From Acidimicrobiia bacterium (GTDB lineage: Bacteria; Actinomycetota; Acidimicrobiia; Spongiisociales; ZC4RG35), in assembly GCA_040878345.1 (NCBI GenBank), contig JBBDML010000022.1, forward strand, positions 21,130 to 85,129: a stretch of DNA of 64,000 bases. Reading direction: 5' to 3'. How positions within the stretch are numbered: the stretch's first letter is position 1; each line of letters opens with the position of its first letter. Under the pieces are notes generated by a model that searched no databases, was not told the DNA's origin, and worked only from the letters and a program-made list of their open reading frames with translations. Shown piece after piece: positions 50,329 to 62,428 of this stretch. The position numbers and the translations under genes are program-made.

Positions 50329-51930
50329 CTACTCCATGAGGAGGTCGGCGTACTGGTCTCTGACTACTTTCTTGTCGAACTTGCCGGTCCCGGTCTTGGG
50401 GACCGAGTCGATGAACACGATCTTGTCGGGGAGCCACCAGCTCGCCACCCGGGACCGGAGGTGCTCCATCAGCTCCTCTTCGGTCACCTCGGACGACTTG
50501 ACCACGAAGGCGGCGGGCCGCTCCTGCCACTTGACGTGCTTGAGCCCGACCACGGTCGCCTCGAGCACCGCCGGGTGGGCCATCAACGCATTCTCCAGGT
50601 CGAGTGAGGAGATCCACTCACCACCCGACTTGATCACGTCCTTTGCCCGGTCGGTGATCCGGATGTAGCCCTCCGGGGTGATCTTGCACACGTCCCCCGT
50701 GCGCAGCCAGCCGTCTTCGAATGAGCTGGCGCTCCGCTCGTCCTTGTAGTACTCGGCGGCGATCCACGGGCCGCGGATGAGCAGCTCGCCGAAGGCCTCG
50801 CCATCGTGGGGCAGCTCCTCGCCGATCTCGTCGACGATCTTGACCTGGAGCCCGGCCACCGGGATGCCGGCGGTCTCCATCCGGTCGAGCTGGTCCTGGA
50901 GGTCCCACTCTTCCATGTGTGGCTTGAGCACCGCGGCCGAGGCCACCGGGTTGGTCTCGGTCATGCCCCAACCCTGGATGACCCGCACCCCGCGCTCGGT
51001 CCAGAACCACTCGATCATCGACCGGGGCACCGCCGATCCGCCACAGAAGAAAGCTCGGATGTGGGAGACGTCGATGTCCGGGTGGGCCTCCAGGTACTGC
51101 TTGATCCCCAACCAGACGGTTGGGACCCCGGCGCTGAAGGTGACCTTCTCATCGGTGATCAGCTTGACCAAGCCCTCGGGTGAGAGGTCGGGCCCGGGGT
51201 AGGTCAGCTTGGCTCCCCTGGTGACCGCCATGTACGGGTAGCCCCAGGCGGCAGCATGGAACATCGGCACCACCGGGAGCACGTTGTCCTTCGCCTCGAT
51301 TCCATAGTTGGCCAGGTTGGAGATGGTGTGGACGTAGGTCGACCGCTGGGTGTAGGCCACCCCTTTTGGGTTGCCGGTGGTACCCGAGCTGTAACAGAGC
51401 ATCATCGGCGAGCGCTCGTCGAGCATCGGCCAGGCGCCATGCTCGGGGGCATCGGCGATCAGGTCCTCATAGGCGATCGAGCCGGGGAGGGAGTCACTCG
51501 CCTCGGCACCGAGCACCACCCAATTCTCCACCGTCGCCATCTTGTCGACCAGTGGCGCAATCAGCGGGACCAGGCCGGGGTCGACGAACATCACCCTGTC
51601 ACCGGCATGGTTGGCGATGTAGGCGATCTGGTCGGCGAAGAGCCGGAGATTGATGGTGTGACAGATCCTGCCGGTGTTGGCGGTGGCCCAGTAGAGCTCA
51701 TGGTGTCTCTGGTTGTTCCAGGCAAACGTGCCCACCGCGTCCCCACGCTCGATGCCGAGACTGTCGAAGGCCGAGGCGAGCTTCCGGACCCGGGCATCGG
51801 TCGAGCCGTATGTCGAGCGGGAGACCGAGCGGTCGGCCTCCACCGACACGATCTGCTGATCGGGGTGGATCCAGACCGCGTGGTCGTACAGCGTTGACAG
51901 GAGCAGCGGGAAGTCCTGCATGTGGGCCAT
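50329..51930 (-). CDS. Long/medium-chain acyl-CoA synthetase (AMP-binding family)
   Basis: AMP motif YSSGTTGNPKGV, GWGMTET, WLRTGD, PKTGTGKFDKK. The ATG at 51930 was chosen; the 180-codon N-terminal extension in the track is Arg/His/Pro-rich junk. Confidence 0.9.
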   Translation of the reverse strand: MAHMQDFPLLLSTLYDHAVWIHPDQQIVSVEADRSVSRSTYGSTDARVRKLASAFDSLGIERGDAVGTFAWNNQRHHELYWATANTGRICHTINLRLFADQIAYIANHAGDRVMFVDPGLVPLIAPLVDKMATVENWVVLGAEASDSLPGSIAYEDLIADAPEHGAWPMLDERSPMMLCYSSGTTGNPKGVAYTQRSTYVHTISNLANYGIEAKDNVLPVVPMFHAAAWGYPYMAVTRGAKLTYPGPDLSPEGLVKLITDEKVTFSAGVPTVWLGIKQYLEAHPDIDVSHIRAFFCGGSAVPRSMIEWFWTERGVRVIQGWGMTETNPVASAAVLKPHMEEWDLQDQLDRMETAGIPVAGLQVKIVDEIGEELPHDGEAFGELLIRGPWIAAEYYKDERSASSFEDGWLRTGDVCKITPEGYIRITDRAKDVIKSGGEWISSLDLENALMAHPAVLEATVVGLKHVKWQERPAAFVVKSSEVTEEELMEHLRSRVASWWLPDKIVFIDSVPKTGTGKFDKKVVRDQYADLLME

Positions 51931-52529
51931 CAGCTGCCACCCATGAGATGGCGCTTCTCGGTGTCGAACTCCTCGTCGGTCAGCTTGCCCTGGTCGTGGA
52001 GCCTCGAGAGTGTCTCGAGTTGGGACGCCCTCGACTCGCCACCGCGGCCCCCGCTCTCCATTTGCCGCATCCGGGCCTCCCGTACCTTGTAGATGACAGT
52101 CTGGACTGCTTCCGGCTTGGGGATGTCCTTGTAGCGGCTCTGCCCATGGGTGCCGGCGGACTCGATGAGCAGGTCGCCGGTCCCGAAGACCCTCTCGAAC
52201 ACCGACTGGGTGAAAGCCACGTCGTTTATCACTTCCAATGGGATCTCCTTGCCCCGCTTCGAGATGAACCCGGCGCGGTAGATGACCCGCTCGTTGGTTA
52301 TGACGTGGGTGGTGGTGATCCATGTGATCACCCCGTTGGCGATCGCCAGGAGCACGACCACCCAGAGCCCGATGATGATCCACACCGGGGCATCCATCAC
52401 GCCGAGGATGATGGCGAGAGCGATGGCCGCCGCCACCAGCAGGCCCTCCCTGAGCAACTGTGACCAATGCGGCCGGAACTGGGCCTCGATCACCTCACCG
52501 TCGCTGAGCAGTCGATCCGGGTATCCCAT
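51930..52529 (-). CDS. Membrane bPH_2 (DUF304/YdbT-like PH) domain protein with C-terminal SHOCT domain
   Basis: 199 aa. GEVIEAQFRPHW, two TM helices, HVITNERVIYRAGFISKRGKEIPLEVINDV..GTGDLLIES, C-terminal LETLSRLHDQGKLTDEEFDTEKRHL (SHOCT). Confidence 0.75.
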   Translation of the reverse strand: MGYPDRLLSDGEVIEAQFRPHWSQLLREGLLVAAAIALAIILGVMDAPVWIIIGLWVVVLLAIANGVITWITTTHVITNERVIYRAGFISKRGKEIPLEVINDVAFTQSVFERVFGTGDLLIESAGTHGQSRYKDIPKPEAVQTVIYKVREARMRQMESGGRGGESRASQLETLSRLHDQGKLTDEEFDTEKRHLMGGS

Positions 52530-53185
52530 CAGCCCTCCTTAAGGACTCTTGCCTTCTCGGCGTTGAACTCTTCGTCGGTGAGGCTGCCCTGCCGATGCAG
52601 ACGCGCCAGGATCTCCAGCTGTTCGGCGCGGCTGGCTCCCATCGAGGGGCTCGAGGCCGTGGCCCCCTGCGTCGCCGACGGCTCGGCATGCGGCTGGGAC
52701 GCCTGGCTGAACCGATGCTCGGCCCGTGACTCCCTCGCCTCGCTCACCAGCTGCTTCCACTCGGTGGGGCCCGGGACGTTCGACACCGCGGTGCGCCCAT
52801 TACTCGCAGAGGTCTCCAGCATGAGGTCACCCGCCCCCACCATTCGCTGCAGGCCTGACTGCCTGAAACCCACGTCCTGAACCCGGTCAACCGGGATCTC
52901 GTAACCCTTCTTGGAGAGCAGCCCCTGTCTGAAGATCACCCGGCGGTTGGTGAGCACCAGGTCGGTCGTGTACCAATTTGTGACCCCCCTGAAGCTGGCG
53001 ACGGCCCAGGCGATGACCAGAACGACATAGACCCAACCGGGGAAGTTGGTGGCTGCCAGGAGCACGATGATCAGGAGCAGGAGACCAGCGGTGTAGAGGA
53101 TCTCCCGGTATAGAGCAACCCAATGCAGCTTGGTGTCGCGGATCAGCCGCTCGTCTGGCTGCAGCATGCTCGGGGGGAAGACCAT
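52529..53185 (-). CDS. Membrane bPH_2 (DUF304) domain protein with C-terminal SHOCT domain, paralog of the downstream gene
   Basis: 218 aa with the same architecture: DERLIRDTKLHW, two TM helices, LVLTNRRVIFRQGLLSKKGYEIPVDRVQDV..GAGDLMLET, LEILARLHRQGSLTDEEFNAEKARV. Confidence 0.75.
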   Translation of the reverse strand: MVFPPSMLQPDERLIRDTKLHWVALYREILYTAGLLLLIIVLLAATNFPGWVYVVLVIAWAVASFRGVTNWYTTDLVLTNRRVIFRQGLLSKKGYEIPVDRVQDVGFRQSGLQRMVGAGDLMLETSASNGRTAVSNVPGPTEWKQLVSEARESRAEHRFSQASQPHAEPSATQGATASSPSMGASRAEQLEILARLHRQGSLTDEEFNAEKARVLKEG

Positions 53186-53203
53186 GGACGCGCCGGAGAT
53201 TAC

Positions 53204-53248
53204 TGCGTGAGTAGATGATGTCGTCTGGCTACGTCATCTACTCACGCA
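53204..53248. repeat. Inverted repeat with 18-nt arms and a 9-nt spacer
   Basis: tgcgtgagtagatgatgt (53204-53221) / acgtcatctactcacgca (53231-53248). 17/18 positions are complementary. The exception, 53219/53233, is U-G on the plus strand and A-C on the minus strand. Lies 18 nt upstream of the 53185 start codon. Confidence 0.85.
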
Positions 53249-53710
53249 CGGGAATCACAGACGCGAGAAACCCCGAGGGAGCCTCGGCCGAAGCCTCAAC
53301 CCTCTCGGGGTTCTCAGTCCGTCTTCGTCGGGCCGGGGACCCAACTCCGAGCGGTGCCATCGACCGAAGCCGTTGGCGTGCGGTCCGAAGACCGCTCTCC
53401 CCGTCTCCGGGGAGGGTGCAGGCCTTGCGGCCTGCGGTCGTCAAACCGCTCGACGATCCCGAGGGATCCCCGTTCGGTCTGGCGACCTTCCGAGTCGCCT
53501 CCGGTTTCCCGGGTGCGATCCGGCGAGCCTTCCGTTCGGTTTCCCGTCCATCCGGCTCGACCTGTGTCGGCGGTTTCCCGCCGATACTGGCCCTGTCTCG
53601 GGGTTTCCCCTTCGACGTGGGCGGAAAGGTAGACCATGGCCCCGGACGGCACAAGTTGAGAGCCACATTGTTTTTCGCGAGCTCTCGATCAGATTTCGCG
53701 GAGGCCGGAG
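53249..53710 (-). ncRNA. Candidate structured RNA, module A (~460 nt; family unassigned, boundaries approximate)
   Basis: On the minus strand it runs from the A-rich box CGCGAAAAACAATGTGG (plus 53663-53679) to the terminator-like hairpin R1 followed by UUUCUCGCG. It contains GAAA-capped stems (plus 53503-53510, 53539-53546, 53568-53583, 53602-53609), cUUCGg stems (53361-53372, 53380-53395, 53286-53295) and a GCAA-capped 7-bp stem (53418-53435). Confidence 0.4.
53260..53316. repeat. 57-nt hairpin element R, copy 1
   Basis: gacgcgagaaaccccgagggagcctcggccgaagcctcaaccctctcggggttctca. 55/57 identical to 53744-53800. Confidence 0.9.
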
Positions 53711-53743
53711 GGAGAGGGCTTTTGCACTTTGGGAAGGGCTACG

Positions 53744-53800
53744 GACGCGAGAAACCCCGAGGGAGCCTCGGCCGAAGCCTCAGCCCTCTCGGGGCTCTCA
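53744..53800. repeat. 57-nt hairpin element R, copy 2
   Basis: Same sequence as 53260-53316 except a->g at 53783 and t->c at 53795. Confidence 0.9.
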
Positions 53801-53985
53801 TGCCATCTCGCCGGGAAAGCGGGCCCCCAGCAAGGCGGCCTCGAAGAAGCCGAAGCTCCTTCGACACCGACCTGAGGTTGCCCTCGAGTCGGCGAGGGGA
53901 AAGTAGGCGAGCCGGTCGGACCGAGTCAAGGGCAACCCCACATAGTTTTTCGCGTCTTTCGGCTCTTTTTCGCGGTCGGCCCCGA
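53744..53985 (-). ncRNA. Candidate structured RNA, module B (~240 nt; family unassigned, boundaries approximate)
   Basis: Same bracketing as module A: A-rich box CGCGAAAAACTATGTGG (plus 53938-53954) and hairpin R2. Also a 9-bp helix 53876-53884/53929-53937, and a 10-bp UUCG-capped stem at 53841-53864 that is perfect only on the minus strand. Confidence 0.35.
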
Positions 53986-54015
53986 TGGTCCCGGAATCTG
54001 TCGCGGGCCATTCCT

Positions 54016-54849
54016 ATGATCGATCACATGACCGTCGAGGCGAGAGTCGTGCCCATTGACCTCCCCAGGTCCCTTCAGACACTCTCGCCTAGCCGGGCGG
54101 GCGATTTCAAGACCTGCCCCCAACTGTTCAAGTTCCGGGCCATCGACCGGATCCCCGAGCCGGTCTCGATCTACCAGGCGCGTGGGACCACCTCCCATCT
54201 CGCCCTCCAACGGCTGTTCGACGAGCCGATGGCCGTCCGCACCCCGGACCGTCTCTTCGACCTGTTTCGCCAAGCTTGGACCGAGATCCGCTCGGAGGAG
54301 GAGTTCGAAGGGCTCTTCGAGTCCGTGGATGAAGAACGCGAATGGGGTCTCCAGTCCCTCGAGCTGCTCGCCAACTACTTCGCCATCGAAGACCCCACCA
54401 GCTTCGACCCCGCGGACCGCGAGCTCGATCTTCTCGAGGACCTCGACGGAATGATGATTCGGGGGATTCTCGACCGGATGGACCGCACCGACGACGGCCG
54501 ACTGGTGATCACCGACTACAAGACGGGCAAGGCGCCACCCGAGGCCTACGCCCTCCCCGCCTTCTTCGCCCTCAAGATCTATGCCCTGCTGATCCGCAAC
54601 AGCACCGGGGAGACTCCGTCTGAAGTCCGGCTGCTCTACCTCAATGGCCCCACCCTGTACCGGCTCCCAATCGAGGACCGCCAGCTCGATGCGATGCACG
54701 CACAACTCAGGGCGTTGTGGACCGCCATCGACCGTGCCATGGAGTCCGAGCGCTTCCCGGCCCGCCCGGGAAGACTCTGTGATTGGTGCTCCTACAAGGA
54801 GATCTGCCCGGCGTGGGCCGCTCCTGCCGATGAGGTGCCTGCGGTCTAG
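54016..54849 (+). CDS. PD-(D/E)XK nuclease, RecB/Cas4-like with Fe-S cysteines
   Basis: Only the last 277 codons of track ORF 53215..54849 look like protein. They carry FKTCPQLFKF, GILDRMDR, LVITDYKTGK (D..D/ExK) and C-terminal CDWCSYKEIC, the Cas4/AddB-type 4-Cys pattern. ATG 54016 (or 54028). Confidence 0.8.
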   Translation: MIDHMTVEARVVPIDLPRSLQTLSPSRAGDFKTCPQLFKFRAIDRIPEPVSIYQARGTTSHLALQRLFDEPMAVRTPDRLFDLFRQAWTEIRSEEEFEGLFESVDEEREWGLQSLELLANYFAIEDPTSFDPADRELDLLEDLDGMMIRGILDRMDRTDDGRLVITDYKTGKAPPEAYALPAFFALKIYALLIRNSTGETPSEVRLLYLNGPTLYRLPIEDRQLDAMHAQLRALWTAIDRAMESERFPARPGRLCDWCSYKEICPAWAAPADEVPAV

Positions 54850-56423: not shown

Positions 56424-59375
56424 GTGACCATCAGGGAGTCGAGGATCGGCCTCGGCGACTGGCCCGCCGCCATAGAGCGAACCAATGGCTACCAGATCGT
56501 GGTGGCCGGTCCAGGGACCGGCAAGTCAGAGCTCTTGGTCAGGAGGGTCGCCCATCTCCTCGAGGCGGCGAAGGCCCGCCCCGGCGAGATCGTGGTGCTG
56601 TGCTTCTCGAGACGAGCCGCCGCCGCCTTGCGGCACCGGATCGGGCTGGCCGCGGGCAATCCCGGCGCCGGGGTCGACGCCACCACCTTCCACTCCCTTG
56701 CCCTCCGCCTCACCGAGAAGCTAGGGGTTGGACCGACACCGTCGCCACTGACCACACCGGAGCAGATCGGGTTCGTTGCCGCTGTCCTCGCCGACGAGCG
56801 CCCCGATGAGTGGCCCATGGTCTATCGGGAGATCCTGACCACCACCGCTTTCGCCGCCGAAGTCGCCGACTTCCTCATGAGATGCTCGGAAAGGCTGCTC
56901 AGCCCCGATGACCTGGCCTCACGGGCCGCCCAACGCGCCGATTGGCGGGGGCTGCCCGGTCTCTACAGGCGCTATCTCGATCGCCTCGGCCAGGCCCAAC
57001 GGACCGACTACGGGGTGCTCCTCGCCTCGACCGCCGCCCTCCTCCAGGGCGAGGTCGGCAAAGAGGTGTCGGCCGGCTACCGCTACGTGCTGGTCGACGA
57101 GTATCAGGACACCACTCCGGCCCAGGCCGAGATCGCCCGGCTGCTCGCCGGCGCCCATCACAACCTCACCGTCGCAGGCGATCCCTACCAGTCGATCTAC
57201 TCGTTTCGTGGGGCGGAGCTTCGCAACGTCGCCGAGTTCACACAGACTCATCCCGACGCAGAGCGCCTGATCCTCACCGAGAGTCTCCGCGTCCCCGCCG
57301 AGATCATGGCCGCCGCCCTTCGCGTCGTCTCCGGGGGCGACCTTCCCGGAGCCGCCGGTCCGGTGACACCGGCGCCCCACCCGGGCAGATGCGAGGCGTA
57401 TGTGTTCGACCAGGAGACAGGTGAGGCGGAGTGGATCGCCGGCCAGGTGGAGCAGGCGATGGTCATCGAAGGCACCAAACCGTCACAGATAGCGGTGCTG
57501 GTGCGGTCCAAGCGGGAGGCGCTCACCGAGCTCTCCCGGGCCCTGGACAGGAGAGGCATACCCCACGACCCACCGGAGAGCCGGCTGATCGACCACCCGG
57601 CCGTCCAATTGGTCCATGACCTGGTGATCCTGGTGGTGACCGGTGGATCGCTCCCGACGACAACTGCAGTGGAGGCGGCTGCTGCGGACCGAGCGATGCG
57701 ACGGGTGCTGCTCGGGCCACTGGTCGGGCTCGGGCTGGGCCGGGAGCGGAGCCTGCTGAGAGCGAGAAGACGCACCTGGGAGCCGTGGCATCAGGTGATC
57801 GCGGAGCGGCTTCCGGAGAACCCAGGCCTGGGAGCCTTGCTCCAGGAGCTCGACTGGGCCACCGTCCGGAGCGCCACGGACGGCTTTTGGCATCTATGGA
57901 CCACGCTCGATGGGCTGGAGGCAGTGGTCGCCGATGCGGGGCGCGGCGACTGGCGCCGGGCGTGGGCCGCCTTCGCCCAGAGCCTGGCGCGCCAGGCCGA
58001 GCGGGACCCCTCGATGACCTTGGCCCGTTACTTCGCCCTCACCGAGGAAGACGACTTCGAGGCCGAGCCGATGTTGACTCATCACCTGACAGCCGACCGG
58101 GTCACCCTGACCACCTTGCACCAGGCCAAGGGTCTCGAGTTCGAGTTGGTATTCATCGCCAATGCCTCAGAGGGTGTGTTCCCCGACCTCCGGCGTAGTC
58201 GTCGCATGCTCCGTCCCGAGCTGCTCTCCCCGGAGCGAACCACCGACCCCCATGCCATCCATCTGTTTCAGCTCCAGGAGGAGATGCGCCTGGCATACAC
58301 CGCAATGACCAGGGCCCGATCCAGGGTGGTGCTCACCGCCACCTCCGCCGGGATCGACCAGGGGGAGAGGAGACCATCCCGGTTCCTGGTGGCAGCCTCC
58401 GGAACGGGGCTCGATCAGCTGGGCCCGCCGGAGGAGAGCGACCGCGACCCGATCACCGTCAACGAGACGGAGATCGTGCTGAGACGCTTGCTCCTCGACC
58501 CGGCAGCCCCGGCACCCCGTCGTCTGGCTGCTGCATCCACCCTGTGCAGGCATGCTGACGGCCGATGGGAACCACACCGTTTCGCGGGGGTCGCGGCCCC
58601 GGGGCCGGACCGCCCCATCCTGGGAGAGACGATCCGTCTCTCGCCGAGCCAGGCCGAGTCATACCAATCTTGCCCCCGCCGCTATGCGCTGGAGCGCCGG
58701 CTGCGTCTCAGTGACGGCGACTCGCAGTACACCATGTTCGGTTCCCTGATCCATGACCTCCTGGAACGTGCGGAGAGGGAGGTGATCGGGACCGGGGCCA
58801 GACACGCCGAGCTGGGGAGGGCGCTCGAGCTCCTCGATGATGTCTGGGAGGGGGCCAGCTTTGGAACCCCTCAGCTGGATCAGGCGTGGAAGGCCAAGGC
58901 AGTGGAGCTGCTGGAACGGCTCTACCAGAACTGGCCGGGAGCCGGTCCCCCGGTGGCCGTCGAGCGTGAGGTGGCCACCAGGATCGAAGGTGTCGACTGG
59001 GTGGGCAAGATCGACCGGGTGGAACAGGCGGGCGACGGTGTCCGGGTAGTGGACTACAAGACGACCACCAGGCCCCTCACCTACCCCGACGCCGCTGTTT
59101 CGGTGCAGCTCGGCTTCTACGCCACCGCCCTCGCCACCGAGGGACGACCGGTGGTCGATGCCCAGTTCTGGTACCCGCGGGCTGACTCGAAGGCAGTCAC
59201 CACTCGTCCACTGGACATGTCGGCCCTCGACACCCTCGCCGACGAGATGAGACAGATCACCCACTCCATCCTCGCCGAGGACTGGGCTCCGCGGGTGGGG
59301 AGCCATTGCGACCGATGCGACTTCAGGGGGTCCTGTCCCGCCTGGCCCGAAGGAAGGGGGGCATATCTCCCATGA
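56424..59375 (+). CDS. adnA: UvrD/Rep-type helicase fused to a C-terminal PD-(D/E)XK nuclease, AdnA-like
   Basis: 983 aa. GPGTGKSE Walker A, VDEYQDT, TLHQAKGLEFE, VAMTRAR. The nuclease part has SCPRRYALE, VVDYKTT, CDRCDFRGSC. Confidence 0.8.
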   Translation: MTIRESRIGLGDWPAAIERTNGYQIVVAGPGTGKSELLVRRVAHLLEAAKARPGEIVVLCFSRRAAAALRHRIGLAAGNPGAGVDATTFHSLALRLTEKLGVGPTPSPLTTPEQIGFVAAVLADERPDEWPMVYREILTTTAFAAEVADFLMRCSERLLSPDDLASRAAQRADWRGLPGLYRRYLDRLGQAQRTDYGVLLASTAALLQGEVGKEVSAGYRYVLVDEYQDTTPAQAEIARLLAGAHHNLTVAGDPYQSIYSFRGAELRNVAEFTQTHPDAERLILTESLRVPAEIMAAALRVVSGGDLPGAAGPVTPAPHPGRCEAYVFDQETGEAEWIAGQVEQAMVIEGTKPSQIAVLVRSKREALTELSRALDRRGIPHDPPESRLIDHPAVQLVHDLVILVVTGGSLPTTTAVEAAAADRAMRRVLLGPLVGLGLGRERSLLRARRRTWEPWHQVIAERLPENPGLGALLQELDWATVRSATDGFWHLWTTLDGLEAVVADAGRGDWRRAWAAFAQSLARQAERDPSMTLARYFALTEEDDFEAEPMLTHHLTADRVTLTTLHQAKGLEFELVFIANASEGVFPDLRRSRRMLRPELLSPERTTDPHAIHLFQLQEEMRLAYTAMTRARSRVVLTATSAGIDQGERRPSRFLVAASGTGLDQLGPPEESDRDPITVNETEIVLRRLLLDPAAPAPRRLAAASTLCRHADGRWEPHRFAGVAAPGPDRPILGETIRLSPSQAESYQSCPRRYALERRLRLSDGDSQYTMFGSLIHDLLERAEREVIGTGARHAELGRALELLDDVWEGASFGTPQLDQAWKAKAVELLERLYQNWPGAGPPVAVEREVATRIEGVDWVGKIDRVEQAGDGVRVVDYKTTTRPLTYPDAAVSVQLGFYATALATEGRPVVDAQFWYPRADSKAVTTRPLDMSALDTLADEMRQITHSILAEDWAPRVGSHCDRCDFRGSCPAWPEGRGAYLP

Positions 59376-62300
59376 GCCAGATCGTCCCCACCGATGAGCA
59401 GCAGGCGATCCTCGACCTCGGCCTCACCACGATCAAGGTGAGGGCAGGGGCGGGGACCGGCAAGACCACAACGGTGGCGATGGTCATCGCCAACCTGATC
59501 GCCACCCACGGGGTCGAGCCGGAGCAGGTGCTGGGGATCACGTTCACCAACAAGGCCGCCTCCGAGCTCGCCGATCGGGTTCGTGCCATGGTCGGGTCCG
59601 ACGAGCCGGGGCGACAGGCCGAGGTCCACACCTACCACGGGTTCGCCGCCCAGATCCTGGCCGAGCTCGGGGCGTTGGCGGGGGTCGACAACCGGGCCAA
59701 GGTGATCACCCCGACCTTTGCCAGGCAGCTGATGAGCGAGACCTTCCATCACCGCTCCTATCAGTACCTCGACATCACCCAGAGCCGCACCCTCGACCAG
59801 ATCAGGAGACTCGGGGAACGGCTCGGCGATCACCTGCTGACCCCCCAGGACATCCTCGACCTGCCGGTTGCCGATGACATCGAAAGGGCCCGGCACGAGA
59901 TGGCTCAAACCCTGGTCCAATACCAGGAGGACAAGCGACGGCTCAAGGTTGTCGACTATTCCGACCTGGTCACACTCTCCACCCGGATCGTCACCGAGAA
60001 CCCCGATCTGGCCCGGGCCATCCGCGATCGATATCGGGTGGTGGTCCTCGATGAGTACCAGGACACCAACCCGGCACAACGTGGACTGCTACTCGCCATC
60101 TTCGGTGACGGGTTCCCGGTGATCGCAGTGGGAGACGAGGACCAGACCATCTACGAGTGGCGCGGGGCGTCGGCCGAGAACTTCGAGCTATTCGCCGATC
60201 ACTTCCGGCGACCCGACGGTGGGCCGGCCCATCTCAAGGGGCTCCGGCTCAACCGGCGCTCGACCCAGCGCATCCTCGAAGTCGCCAACCAGGTTCGAGC
60301 CCGGGCAGGTGTAGATCCCGAGCCACTGATCTCGGCCAGGCCCGACGACGACGACAGCGAGGTCGTCACCCACTGGGCGGCCGACGCCCTCGAGGAGGCG
60401 GAGTGGATCGCGGCCAGGTTCGAGGGGCTCCACGACCAGGGCGTGCCATGGAGGGAGATGGCGGTGCTGTTCAGGAAGAACAAGGACTTCGCGGTCATGG
60501 TCGACGTCCTGGGTCGCCATGAGATACCGCTGGAGGTCGCCAACATCGGGGGTCTCCTCTCCGTCCCGGAAGTGGCCGATCTCAGGGCATGGCTCACCAT
60601 CCTCGAGCGCCCCGAGGACTCGACGGCTCTGACCCACATCCTTTTCGGGAGTCGCTACCGCCTCGGGCTCGCCGACCTGGCCCCCCTGGTCGGGCTGGCC
60701 GGCGCCGAGAACCGCGGGGACGACGACGACGAGGAGCCCACCCCGGTGACATTGATCGAAGTGATCGAGAGCCTCGACGAGCTCCCGAGCCTCCGAGGGG
60801 AGGCCCGCCTGGCCCTCGACGGATTCCTCGATGCGTATCGCCGGGTTCTCCTCGAGAGCCAGGGGCTGGCACTGGTCGACGTTTGCAGGTTGATCCTCGA
60901 CCAGACCGGGGCCTGGCGGGATATCGAGGCACTGCCCGTCAACCGGCGCCTCACCGCCCGTCTCAACCTCTATCGGCTCCTCGACCTGACCGAGGACTGG
61001 AGCCCGCTCAAGGGGCGGCCCTCGATCCAGGCCTTCCTGGAGTACCTGGACGCGATGGAGGATGAGCCGGCCGAGGAGCTCGATTCGGCAAGGCTGTCGG
61101 GGGAGAACGCGGTCACACTGGTCACCGTCCATCGGGCCAAGGGGCTGGAGTGGGAGAACGTGGCGGTTCCGGCGGTCACCAAAGCCGGCTTCCCCTCCGG
61201 TCAGGGGACGTTCCCCAACCCGGCGTCGGTGGCCGATCAGGTCCCGGTGGGCTTGAGGATCGACACTGTGCTCGACCAGCTCCCCGGTGACCTGGAACGG
61301 GCCAAGGACTTCCTCCGTGAGCGCCACCTCAGGCAAGAGTGGCGGGTGGCCTATGTCGCCATCACCAGGGCCAAGCGGCGTCTCTTTCTGTCCGGCGCCC
61401 ATTGGTACGGTCACCCCGAGGCCAACAAGAGACCCAAAGAGCCCTCCGACCTCTGGCTCCTGGTCGACGGTCTCGAGGTCTCCACCAACGCCGGTGTGGC
61501 GGCCGTCGGCGATCGGCCCGATGTGTTGAGGCTTCGCCACGAGGATCCGACACCCGACCCCCTGTTCCCGGACGGTTGGGACGGGGCCCTGCGGCGTGCG
61601 CTCGACGACCCCGACACCATCTCGGCACTGGCACGCCAACTGGGTCTCGAGCAGGAGCACCGGGTGCTGGCGGACGAGATGGAGATTCGTCTCTTCTCAT
61701 TGGCCGACCCCGCCAAGCCATCCTCGGGGCCCGATGCCGACACCGTCTCGGTGACAGGACTGGTCACCTACGCCCAGTGCCCCAAGCAGTTCTATTGGAG
61801 CGCGGTCGACCCTCTTCCCCGCCGTCGCAACCTGGCTGCGGTGATGGGCACCGCGGTGCACCGGCGAATCGAGCTCCACCAAAGAGGCCAGGTCCCATTG
61901 GATCTGGTCGATGTCGAGCTCTACGACGTCATCGACACGGATGCAGACGGCGGCGGGGCCGGTGCCTTCGCCAGCTACATGGCCTCGAGATTCGCCGACG
62001 CCAGGGCGATCATGGTCGAGACGCCCTTCACCATCGGGTTGGCATCTGGGATCCGGGTCAACGGGAGGATCGACGCCATATACGAGGATCATGGTCGGTG
62101 GGAGGTGGTCGACTTCAAGAGTGGACGCCGCAACAACGACCCCTCGCGTATCGTCCAGCTCCAGGCATATGCCGTGGCCGTCAACGACTTCGACTTCGGG
62201 TTCCCCAAGCCAGAGGAGGTCACCGTGACATTTGCCTATCTCGGTGGTGGTGGTGGTGACGAGGTGTCCCACGTCGCCAACGGCCCCTGGCTCGATGACG

Positions 62301-62428
62301 CCCGCCACTCGCTCGAGTCTCTGGCGACGGGTATTGGCGGCAAGCAATTCACAGAGCGCACCGGCGAGTGGTGCAGAGGCTGTGACTTCCTGCGGTTCTG
62401 CGGGCCGGGACGGGAACGAGTGGGATGA
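59372..62428 (+). CDS. adnB: UvrD/Rep-type helicase-nuclease, AdnB-like
   Basis: ATG 59372 overlaps the adnA stop (ATGA). GAGTGKTTT, FTNKAASEL, LDEYQDTNP, VGDEDQTIYEWRGA, TVHRAKGLEWE, YVAITRAK. The nuclease part has QCPKQFYW, VVDFKSG, CRGCDFLRFC. Confidence 0.85.
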   Translation: MSQIVPTDEQQAILDLGLTTIKVRAGAGTGKTTTVAMVIANLIATHGVEPEQVLGITFTNKAASELADRVRAMVGSDEPGRQAEVHTYHGFAAQILAELGALAGVDNRAKVITPTFARQLMSETFHHRSYQYLDITQSRTLDQIRRLGERLGDHLLTPQDILDLPVADDIERARHEMAQTLVQYQEDKRRLKVVDYSDLVTLSTRIVTENPDLARAIRDRYRVVVLDEYQDTNPAQRGLLLAIFGDGFPVIAVGDEDQTIYEWRGASAENFELFADHFRRPDGGPAHLKGLRLNRRSTQRILEVANQVRARAGVDPEPLISARPDDDDSEVVTHWAADALEEAEWIAARFEGLHDQGVPWREMAVLFRKNKDFAVMVDVLGRHEIPLEVANIGGLLSVPEVADLRAWLTILERPEDSTALTHILFGSRYRLGLADLAPLVGLAGAENRGDDDDEEPTPVTLIEVIESLDELPSLRGEARLALDGFLDAYRRVLLESQGLALVDVCRLILDQTGAWRDIEALPVNRRLTARLNLYRLLDLTEDWSPLKGRPSIQAFLEYLDAMEDEPAEELDSARLSGENAVTLVTVHRAKGLEWENVAVPAVTKAGFPSGQGTFPNPASVADQVPVGLRIDTVLDQLPGDLERAKDFLRERHLRQEWRVAYVAITRAKRRLFLSGAHWYGHPEANKRPKEPSDLWLLVDGLEVSTNAGVAAVGDRPDVLRLRHEDPTPDPLFPDGWDGALRRALDDPDTISALARQLGLEQEHRVLADEMEIRLFSLADPAKPSSGPDADTVSVTGLVTYAQCPKQFYWSAVDPLPRRRNLAAVMGTAVHRRIELHQRGQVPLDLVDVELYDVIDTDADGGGAGAFASYMASRFADARAIMVETPFTIGLASGIRVNGRIDAIYEDHGRWEVVDFKSGRRNNDPSRIVQLQAYAVAVNDFDFGFPKPEEVTVTFAYLGGGGGDEVSHVANGPWLDDARHSLESLATGIGGKQFTERTGEWCRGCDFLRFCGPGRERVG

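Follow-up and report, generated by a model that had tools for sequence, protein, structure and literature searches.

In the CsrB/RsmZ and Qrr systems, sets of paralogous small RNAs (sRNAs) share an activator site and a terminator, and in OLE with OapA the gene of a large structured RNA lies immediately before that of a small membrane protein, in the same orientation. By architecture and by genomic context, respectively, these are the described systems closest to the locus analysed here, an 830-base gap between genes (positions 53186–54015) in a 64,000-nt stretch of an Acidimicrobiia genome (contig JBBDML010000022.1; hereafter, the window). CsrB and CsrC, as well as RsmX, RsmY and RsmZ, occur in gamma-proteobacteria as several paralogues of differing length per genome, with an upstream site for one activator, a body of variable hairpin number and a conserved 3' hairpin. 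The Qrr genes of Vibrio are likewise paralogous, sharing a promoter architecture with upstream activator sites, a common terminator and invariant single-stranded segments. Some likeness also exists to the 6S and Ms1 RNAs, stable RNAs of the abundant type, 180–300 nt long, with strong promoters, Ms1 being found in Actinobacteria (PMC9130861, PMC4191392); 6S is co-transcribed with a downstream gene. The actinobacterial 6C (B11) sRNA is small, stable and hairpin-rich, with C-rich loops, while OLE and OapA are found in Firmicutes.

The gap lies between two divergent genes, a PH-SHOCT gene on the minus side and a PD-(D/E)XK nuclease gene on the plus side. It very probably contains two tandem, independently transcribed minus-strand genes for structured small RNAs of the same cassette design, namely RNA B, of about 145 nt (predicted to extend from ~53893 to 53749), and RNA A, of about 355 nt (~53620 to 53265). 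Judging from their sequences, these paralogous structured sRNA genes with shared control elements represent a new sRNA family. The first-pass annotation of the window had proposed that one large RNA fills the gap, a proposal that has to be replaced, as each of the two genes has its own conserved promoter and 3' hairpin. A single 830-nt RNA is ruled out by these internal promoters and by the presence in relatives of protein genes between A and B, which identifies the two units as separate genes. About 330 of the 830 bases lie outside the RNA bodies and consist of promoter, box and spacer DNA and a lineage-specific palindrome.

Internal duplications divide the gap into two units of unequal length with the same ends. 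A 68-nt module (duplication D1) is present at 53257–53324 and 53741–53808 with 91% identity, and a 17-nt box, CCACATWGTTTTTCGCG, is present at 53663 and 53938; no further copies of either were found in the 64-kb window. In the alignments, the order of elements on the minus strand is box 2 CGCGAAAA, about 12 nt, box 1 (ga)CGCGAAAA(A)C, about 19 nt, the -35 element, a spacer, the -10 element, the body, and the 3' hairpin. The two CGCGAAAA boxes are direct repeats 20–21 nt apart, centred near -57 and -78. In the RNA A unit, box 2 (CGCGAAAT) is located at 53693–53700 and box 1 (CGCGAAAAAC) at 53670–53679, about -78 and -57 from the predicted start, followed by the -35 element TTGTGC at 53649–53654 and the -10 element TACCTT at 53626–53631. 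The corresponding elements of the RNA B unit, also on the minus strand, are box 2 (CGCGAAAAA) at 53966–53974, box 1 (CGCGAAAAAC) at 53945–53954, TTGACT at 53924–53929, and TACTTT at 53900–53905.

Among the aligned units, the -35 element reads cTTGAC(g) in B units, in which TTGAC is invariant, and cTTG(T/C) in A units, in which this motif is conserved, while the general form of the -10 element is TAC(T/C/G)TT. All 51 distinct A units have TAC(T/C)TT, 17–18 nt after TTG(T/C), and the B units (alignment A1; 52 distinct units) show no variation at the T, A, T and T positions. The -35/-10 spacer, 17–18 nt, is fixed in length and free in sequence in both cases. Such a pattern, with invariant hexamers on either side of a spacer that is constant in length but not in sequence, marks a sigma-70-type promoter and not an RNA helix. 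From these sigma-A-type promoters, transcripts would start 6–8 nt after the -10 element, at about 53620 for RNA A and 53893 for RNA B.

Searched for with a regular expression, this promoter was recovered where expected in 51 distinct A units and 52 distinct B units, and the distance from the start of box 1 to the -35 element is 25 nt in every unit examined, including distant units whose bodies are unrelated to A or B. In the 884 kb of fetched loci, 181 double boxes were found, each of them ahead of such an RNA; a canonical hairpin is present downstream in 149 cases, and in the remaining 32 the body is A-like, B-like or related and either is truncated or has a variant hairpin. Three occurrences of the single box were found in the 64-kb window, all of them inside the gap. 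The two units thus have the generic features of independent sRNA genes, their own promoter and a 3' stem-loop, save for a canonical long U-tract.

The 3' hairpin, about 55 nt long and near-identical in A and B, has an inner C(UUCG)G cap and ends with GGGGUUUCUCGCGU. In RNA A, this module (UGAGAACCCCGAGAGGGUUGAGGCUUCGGCCGAGGCUCCCUCGGGGUUUCUCGCGU, followed by CGCGU) occupies 53261..53316 on the minus strand, corresponds to one D1 copy and forms helices 15 and 16 of alignment A3; among its pairs are G-U pairs that turn into A-C mismatches on the plus strand. The module of RNA B, the second D1 copy (91% identical), is located at 53745..53800 on the same strand, is also followed by CGCGU, and forms helices 5 and 6 of alignment A2. 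Together with a short U-tract, GGGGUUUCUC, the hairpin is terminator-like, and the 3' end of RNA A is predicted at the U-tract that follows it.

In RNA B, a CCGA/UCGG helix encloses a hairpin with a GCAA cap; the other parts are a UUCG-capped hairpin, a hairpin whose loop is invariant, and the 3' module. Alignment A2, comprising 47 RNA B sequences, supports 43 consensus pairs, of which 14 show compensatory double changes, and 99.3% of cells are standard pairs. None of 500 column shuffles reached the observed values, and slid 3' partners paired at 35–70%. A further helix, GCCAC/GUGGC, is probable. The invariant-loop hairpin, CUGGGGGCCCGCUUUCCCGG (53811..53830, minus strand; helix 4 of A2), has a covarying stem of the form CYNGG/CCN'GG, represented by CCGGG/CCCGG, CCUGG/CCAGG and CCCGG/CCGGG, and a 10-nt loop, GGCCCGCUUU, that is invariant in 45 of the 47 sequences. 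Pair 76-91 of A2, for example, is GC in 31 sequences, GU in 10, CG in five and UA in one. Short RNA B variants of about 95 nt still retain the hairpin with the covarying stem and the GGCCCGCUUU loop, which marks it as the core of the molecule. A search for targets, scanning the window for the complement of this loop, returned only the RNA B gene itself and is thus uninformative as to targets.

RNA A is an array of hairpins with GAAA, GCAA, GAGA or UUCG caps. Alignment A3, containing 18 RNA A sequences of similar architecture, yields 84 consensus pairs, 34 of them with compensatory changes, and 96.2% of cells are paired; the observed level was reached in none of 500 shuffles, and the slid controls gave 35–57%. 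Across lineages, the total length of RNA A ranges from 326 to 481 nt, whole hairpins being gained and lost, and the loops drift between GAAA, GCAA, GUAA, GAGA, CUUG and UUCG. Two hairpins, GGGGAUCC-YUCG-GGAUCGUCG and GGGUCCCCGGCCC, are nearly invariant in sequence. The latter is the core of GUUGGGUCCCCGGCCCGAC (53327..53345, minus strand; helix 14 of A3, with two covarying pairs). A near-invariant block, ACGGGGAUCCCUCGGGAUCGUCGA (53450..53473, minus strand), forms helix 9 of A3, in which eight of 11 pairs never vary; it is conserved over about 50 A sequences, with a CUCG cap in the window and in related locus L048 and a UUCG cap in most relatives.

The strand on which these structures are read was assessed in several ways. 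All hairpins listed in the first-pass annotation are present at their coordinates, and the three pairs it had singled out as A-C on the plus strand and G-U on the minus strand (53847/53858, 53363/53370 and 53753/53795) proved correct in a base-by-base check. The minimum free energy z-score of the gap is -8.45 for the minus strand (-444 kcal/mol) versus -6.28 for the plus strand (-420 kcal/mol). Counting GNRA- or UNCG-capped hairpins with a stem of at least 4 bp, the gap has eight on the minus strand versus two on the plus strand, while dinucleotide shuffles (n = 300) gave 1.29 ± 1.07, with a maximum of five, and other 830-nt windows of the 64 kb gave a mean of 0.76. The UUCG/UCCG and GNRA loops are readable only on the minus strand. 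In the consensus pairs, G-U versus A-C cells number 384 versus 5 for RNA B and 197 versus 16 for RNA A, a count that leans to the minus strand because the structures were predicted on it. The size of these ratios, the loop identities and the promoter orientation are concordant in indicating that the minus strand is the sense strand, and the earlier proposal of selection on a minus-strand fold is borne out by the G-U/A-C ratios, the compensatory changes and the loop identities. A plus-strand RNA ending at the TTTTT of the boxes is ruled out by the G-U/A-C counts, the minus-only UUCG and GNRA loops, and the -35/-10 geometry.

Homologous loci were retrieved with the nuclease protein as a query, which identified nine Acidimicrobiia loci from metagenome-assembled genomes (MAGs) with 74–82% amino acid identity; the gap region was fetched for eight of them. 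The gene order is the same in all eight: acyl-CoA synthetase (ACS), zero to two PH-SHOCT genes, the gap, the nuclease and glutamate dehydrogenase. The gap DNA is 68–84% identical over hundreds of bases, and each locus has exactly two hairpin modules. Homologues and covariation had been named by the first-pass annotation as checks of its RNA, and both are found, as gap DNA conserved in the eight MAG loci and compensatory changes in both RNAs. The spacing between the two modules varies from 484 to 1107 nt because relatives carry inserted protein genes, encoding a weakly ceramidase-like membrane protein (plus strand) or an F420H2-dependent quinone reductase (minus strand) between A and B; a major facilitator superfamily (MFS) transporter or a DUF2306 protein, in both cases on the plus strand, is encoded between B and the nuclease.

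A search with a degenerate pattern of the 3' hairpin revealed 107 metagenome loci with 164 hairpin copies, comprising 76 B units, 71 A units and 17 units with other bodies. As far as these sequences indicate, the RNAs belong to an undescribed family that is kept in more than 100 Acidimicrobiia-like genomes. The boxes, promoter geometry and 3' hairpin persist in distant units whose bodies are unrelated. In the more distant nuclease homologues of Streptosporangiales, the intergenic region is short, about 130 nt, and lacks the cassette.

In 66 of the 67 evaluable units, the gene downstream of RNA A is a co-oriented PH-SHOCT or ACS gene, in agreement with the initial placement of the RNA upstream of, and co-oriented with, the PH-SHOCT/ACS genes. 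Nine units with other bodies also precede a PH-SHOCT gene, five of them with a divergent nuclease gene on the other side, which implies that the ancestral order was nuclease (divergent), RNA, PH-SHOCT. In many loci the PH-SHOCT gene has its own TAnnnT 6–11 nt before the ATG (TAATCT at 53197–53202 in the window), which suggests that its mRNA may be leaderless there, with its own promoter. Downstream of RNA B is the RNA A promoter, a convergent gene (23 units), or a co-oriented gene, as in the L005 type.

Neither RNA corresponds to a described family. Searches with Rfam 15 covariance models at gathering thresholds, covering RNase P, tmRNA, SRP, 6S, riboswitches, OLE, GOLLD, HEARO, ROOL, raiA, 6C and CsrB/Rsm, gave no hits in the whole window or in 15 related loci; the gap region had only chance hits with E > 1, and eight related loci had none at E ≤ 1. 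The first-pass annotation had recognised no known RNA family in the gap and had proposed this very search, whose result agrees with it. ARAGORN found no tmRNA, and nothing relevant was found in the literature on Acidimicrobiia sRNAs or PH-SHOCT-linked RNA motifs. A type III toxin–antitoxin locus of the ToxI type consists of an array of near-identical repeats of about 36 nt, a terminator and an endoribonuclease toxin gene; it was rejected because TRF finds no tandem array and the downstream gene encodes a bPH_2/SHOCT membrane protein.

The likeness to described systems has its limits in each case. Qrr RNAs have sigma-54 promoters with LuxO sites, are about 100 nt long and Hfq-dependent, and have conserved bodies, whereas the cassettes described here have sigma-70-like promoters and highly variable bodies, RNA A reaching 326–481 nt. 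The likeness to OLE is one of gene order, with PH-SHOCT in the place of the small membrane protein; however, neither sequence nor structure is similar, the Rfam OLE model gave no hit, RNA A has no conserved multi-junction core, and PH-SHOCT is missing from the locus in relatives L002, L003 and L005. Unlike 6C, the RNAs lack the 6C loop signature, have no Rfam 6C hit, and differ in synteny and size.

As an overall explanation, we consider it probable, with considerable room for doubt, that A and B are two separate structured sRNA genes under shared control whose products act in trans. Taken by itself, the trans-acting, protein-binding mode is much less certain and is proposed by analogy. One DNA-binding factor at the CGCGAAAA repeats would switch on the paralogous RNAs A and B together, with transcription beginning 6–8 nt past the -10 element and stopping at least partly at the shared 3' hairpin. 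The products would be stable regulatory or protein-binding RNAs acting in trans via invariant elements, namely the GGCCCGCUUU loop and the GGGGAAGGAG linker of RNA B, the GGGGAUCC-YUCG-GGAUCGUCG and GGGUCCCCGGCCC hairpins of RNA A, and the 3' hairpin of both. A protein partner is favoured because the stems, not the loops alone, are sequence-invariant. The variable hairpins with their tetraloops would form a scaffold that lends stability, and read-through past the 3' hairpin of RNA A may add to the expression of the PH-SHOCT/ACS operon. One could further hypothesise, although this is rather doubtful, a lineage-specific Acidimicrobiia regulatory or ribonucleoprotein system in which a dedicated CGCGAAAA-repeat factor drives a cassette-type RNA family, possibly together with the PH-SHOCT protein; promoter and 3' hairpin would be fixed and the hairpin scaffold fast-evolving, with a role like that of CsrB, 6S/Ms1 or OLE.

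Several points weigh against the proposal of two trans-acting sRNAs. The 3' hairpin fails a simple intrinsic-terminator scan, its U-tract being merely UUUCUC, which can pair with an upstream GAGAG. With so weak a U-tract, termination may be inefficient, and RNA A might then for the most part be a long leader. The 5' half of the 3' hairpin served as the metagenome search pattern, and its conservation there is partly a matter of construction. The proposal assigns no part to the invariant CGCGU after the U-tract; CGCG is unlikely to be a fixed element of the PH-SHOCT promoter, since it lies anywhere from 18 to more than 150 nt from the start codon. No repeated motif is kept across lineages and the loops switch, a pattern that speaks against a classic sponge of a sequence-specific protein. 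Transcription itself, the start sites and the 3' ends are predicted from the DNA, and the functions suggested for RNAs A and B are drawn by analogy.

Among the alternatives, RNA A could be a cis-acting leader of the PH-SHOCT/ACS operon with the 3' hairpin as a regulated terminator, attenuator- or riboswitch-like, and RNA B a duplicate doing likewise for what lies downstream. The position of RNA A fits, since it adjoins co-oriented PH-SHOCT/ACS genes in 66 of 67 units at 18 to about 150 nt from the start codon; RNA B of L005 also precedes a co-oriented gene, and the weak U-tract makes read-through plausible. Nevertheless, we regard this explanation as unlikely, because RNA B, built as the same cassette, is followed by a convergent gene in 23 units or by the RNA A promoter, the body contains no conserved aptamer, with whole hairpins coming and going and unrelated bodies in distant lineages, and the PH-SHOCT gene in many loci has the leaderless-promoter-like TAnnnT of its own. 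Protein-titrating sponges of the CsrB/RsmZ type or RNA polymerase binders of the 6S/Ms1 type are quite unlikely, although two paralogues of unequal size with a common upstream repeat, a strong promoter, a common 3' hairpin and a variable number of hairpins are what one would expect of them, and GGAAGG, GGAGG and GGGAAAC motifs are enriched. This enrichment, 5.5-fold for GGAAGG linkers, was calculated among related sequences and is inflated by shared ancestry. Csr/Rsm sponges present many GGA motifs in 5–6-nt loops or single strands, whereas the loops here are 4-nt GNRA/UNCG caps that drift between lineages, with no conserved GGA loop motif and no Rfam match to CsrB/Rsm; the upstream element is the direct repeat CGCGAAAA x2, 20–21 nt apart, and not a GacA/UvrY palindrome. 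We know of no CsrA partner in this lineage. As to the polymerase binders, the folds of A2 and A3 are series of short local hairpins and not a rod with a central bubble, the sole long-range helix having 3 bp and no covariation, and Rfam 6S models give no hit. Ms1 is flanked by genes for a HAD-IB hydrolase ('inhibition of morphological differentiation') and an oxidoreductase (PMC9130861); this synteny is not present at the locus, whose flanks are the PH-SHOCT/AMP-binding acyl-CoA synthetase genes and the PD-(D/E)XK nuclease.

Two readings that assign no RNA function to the gap were also weighed against the two-sRNA proposal. A mobile or dispersed repeat of the MITE or REP kind, bounded by the inverted repeats ACGCGAGAAAC ... 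GTTTTTCGCGT, is very improbable. The complement of the 3' flank does resemble the promoter boxes inverted (I5), and two similar units lie side by side, but the inverted-repeat likeness is largely that of the U-tract complement, only two copies exist in 64 kb, and nearly all of the ~160 units occupy one syntenic position. Strand-specific G-U pairing and compensatory changes indicate selection on an RNA fold, and a mobile-element or phage origin was rejected, no matches to the units being found in viral contig and plasmid collections. Coding for a protein or a small peptide across the gap, for example by ORF (open reading frame) 53215..54849 or by minus-strand ORFs of 75–142 aa, is extremely improbable. 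Long stop-free frames do exist on both strands, but they are expected at 64% G+C, and their start codons are not conserved. The gap-crossing part of ORF 53215..54849 has a translation without any Pfam match, the match to the nuclease beginning after 54016, the position from which the first-pass annotation had recognised nuclease sequence. Indels in RNAs A and B are mostly not multiples of three, and substitutions are distributed flatly over the three codon positions (494/503/586 for RNA B and 484/556/549 for RNA A), in contrast to 765/233/137 in the nuclease control. The absence of Pfam matches and of codon periodicity confirms that the gap is non-coding, as had been supposed from the start.

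Some further features were observed in and around the cassettes. An imperfect 18-bp palindrome, TGCGTGAGTAGATGATGT / ACGTCATCTACTCACGCA, is located at 53204–53248, between the 3' hairpin of RNA A and the TAATCT of the first PH-SHOCT gene; it was found only in the closest relatives (L048 and L114), with a compensatory change from C-G to T-A, and might act as an operator at the PH-SHOCT promoter or form a second stem-loop. Downstream of RNA A and before the next gene, L022, L057, L078, L085, L088, L094, L108 and L110 carry a G/C-rich element, GAGGGGGGACGACCCCCCTC..GACCCCCCGAC, in some cases in two copies, which looks like a REP-like dispersed hairpin repeat. Microsatellite-like runs lie directly 3' of the RNA hairpin in some loci, (CCAGTCT)n in L104 and (GTACCAA)n in L106 and L112. 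Metagenome contigs L030, L041, L099, L107 and L117 end within a few bases of the 3' hairpin module, probably because the near-identical A and B modules collapse the assembly graph.

The space between the cassettes is a hotspot of gene gain and loss (L003/L004/L007/L008, L005, L009, and L001/L002/L004/L006–L008), and the inserted plus-strand genes each begin about 50–60 nt beyond box 2. A more distant lineage (L070, at 4557 and 5776; L072, L104, L107 and L117) carries two RNA genes about 1.2 kb apart with unrelated bodies, the same boxes and promoter geometry, and the 3' hairpin in one of the two; the terminator tail is GGGGUUCCGCCUUUU, without CGCGU.

Two tandem PH-SHOCT genes are present on the minus-strand side of the gap, at 51930–53185. 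The one adjoining the gap (52529..53185, minus strand; MVFPPSML...) encodes a membrane protein with bPH_2 and SHOCT Pfam domains and two transmembrane helices, and is a divergent extra copy with 33–40% identity to PH-SHOCT genes of related loci, while the second (51930..52529; MGYPDRLL...) is the orthologue present in most relatives. On the other side, the Pfam match of the plus-strand nuclease gene begins after 54016, and a TATGAT is located 7 nt upstream of an ATG at 54028 (window 54015–54030). In view of this TATGAT, the nuclease mRNA is probably leaderless, starting at 54028 rather than 54016. In the homologue L041, a TACACT lies 7 nt upstream of the GTG. The boxes of RNA B are at about equal distances from the nuclease start at 54028 and from the start of RNA B. 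Just past the glutamate dehydrogenase gene, two large AdnA/AdnB-like plus-strand genes (56424–62428) each encode a UvrD helicase combined with a PD-(D/E)XK nuclease.

New bacterial RNA motifs are found often, and, to our knowledge, almost nothing is known of the RNA biology of Acidimicrobiia, which are abundant in soils, sediments and waters. The locus supplies two well-supported structured RNAs that have more than 100 homologues, covary strongly and come with precisely predicted promoters. The CGCGAAAA repeat upstream of these promoters is very specific, being found nowhere else in about 0.9 Mb of related DNA. Testable questions are thereby raised about the protein that reads the CGCGAAAA repeats, the partners of the invariant loops, and the reason for the adjacency to PH-SHOCT, and new covariance models for annotating genomes can be built from the alignments.

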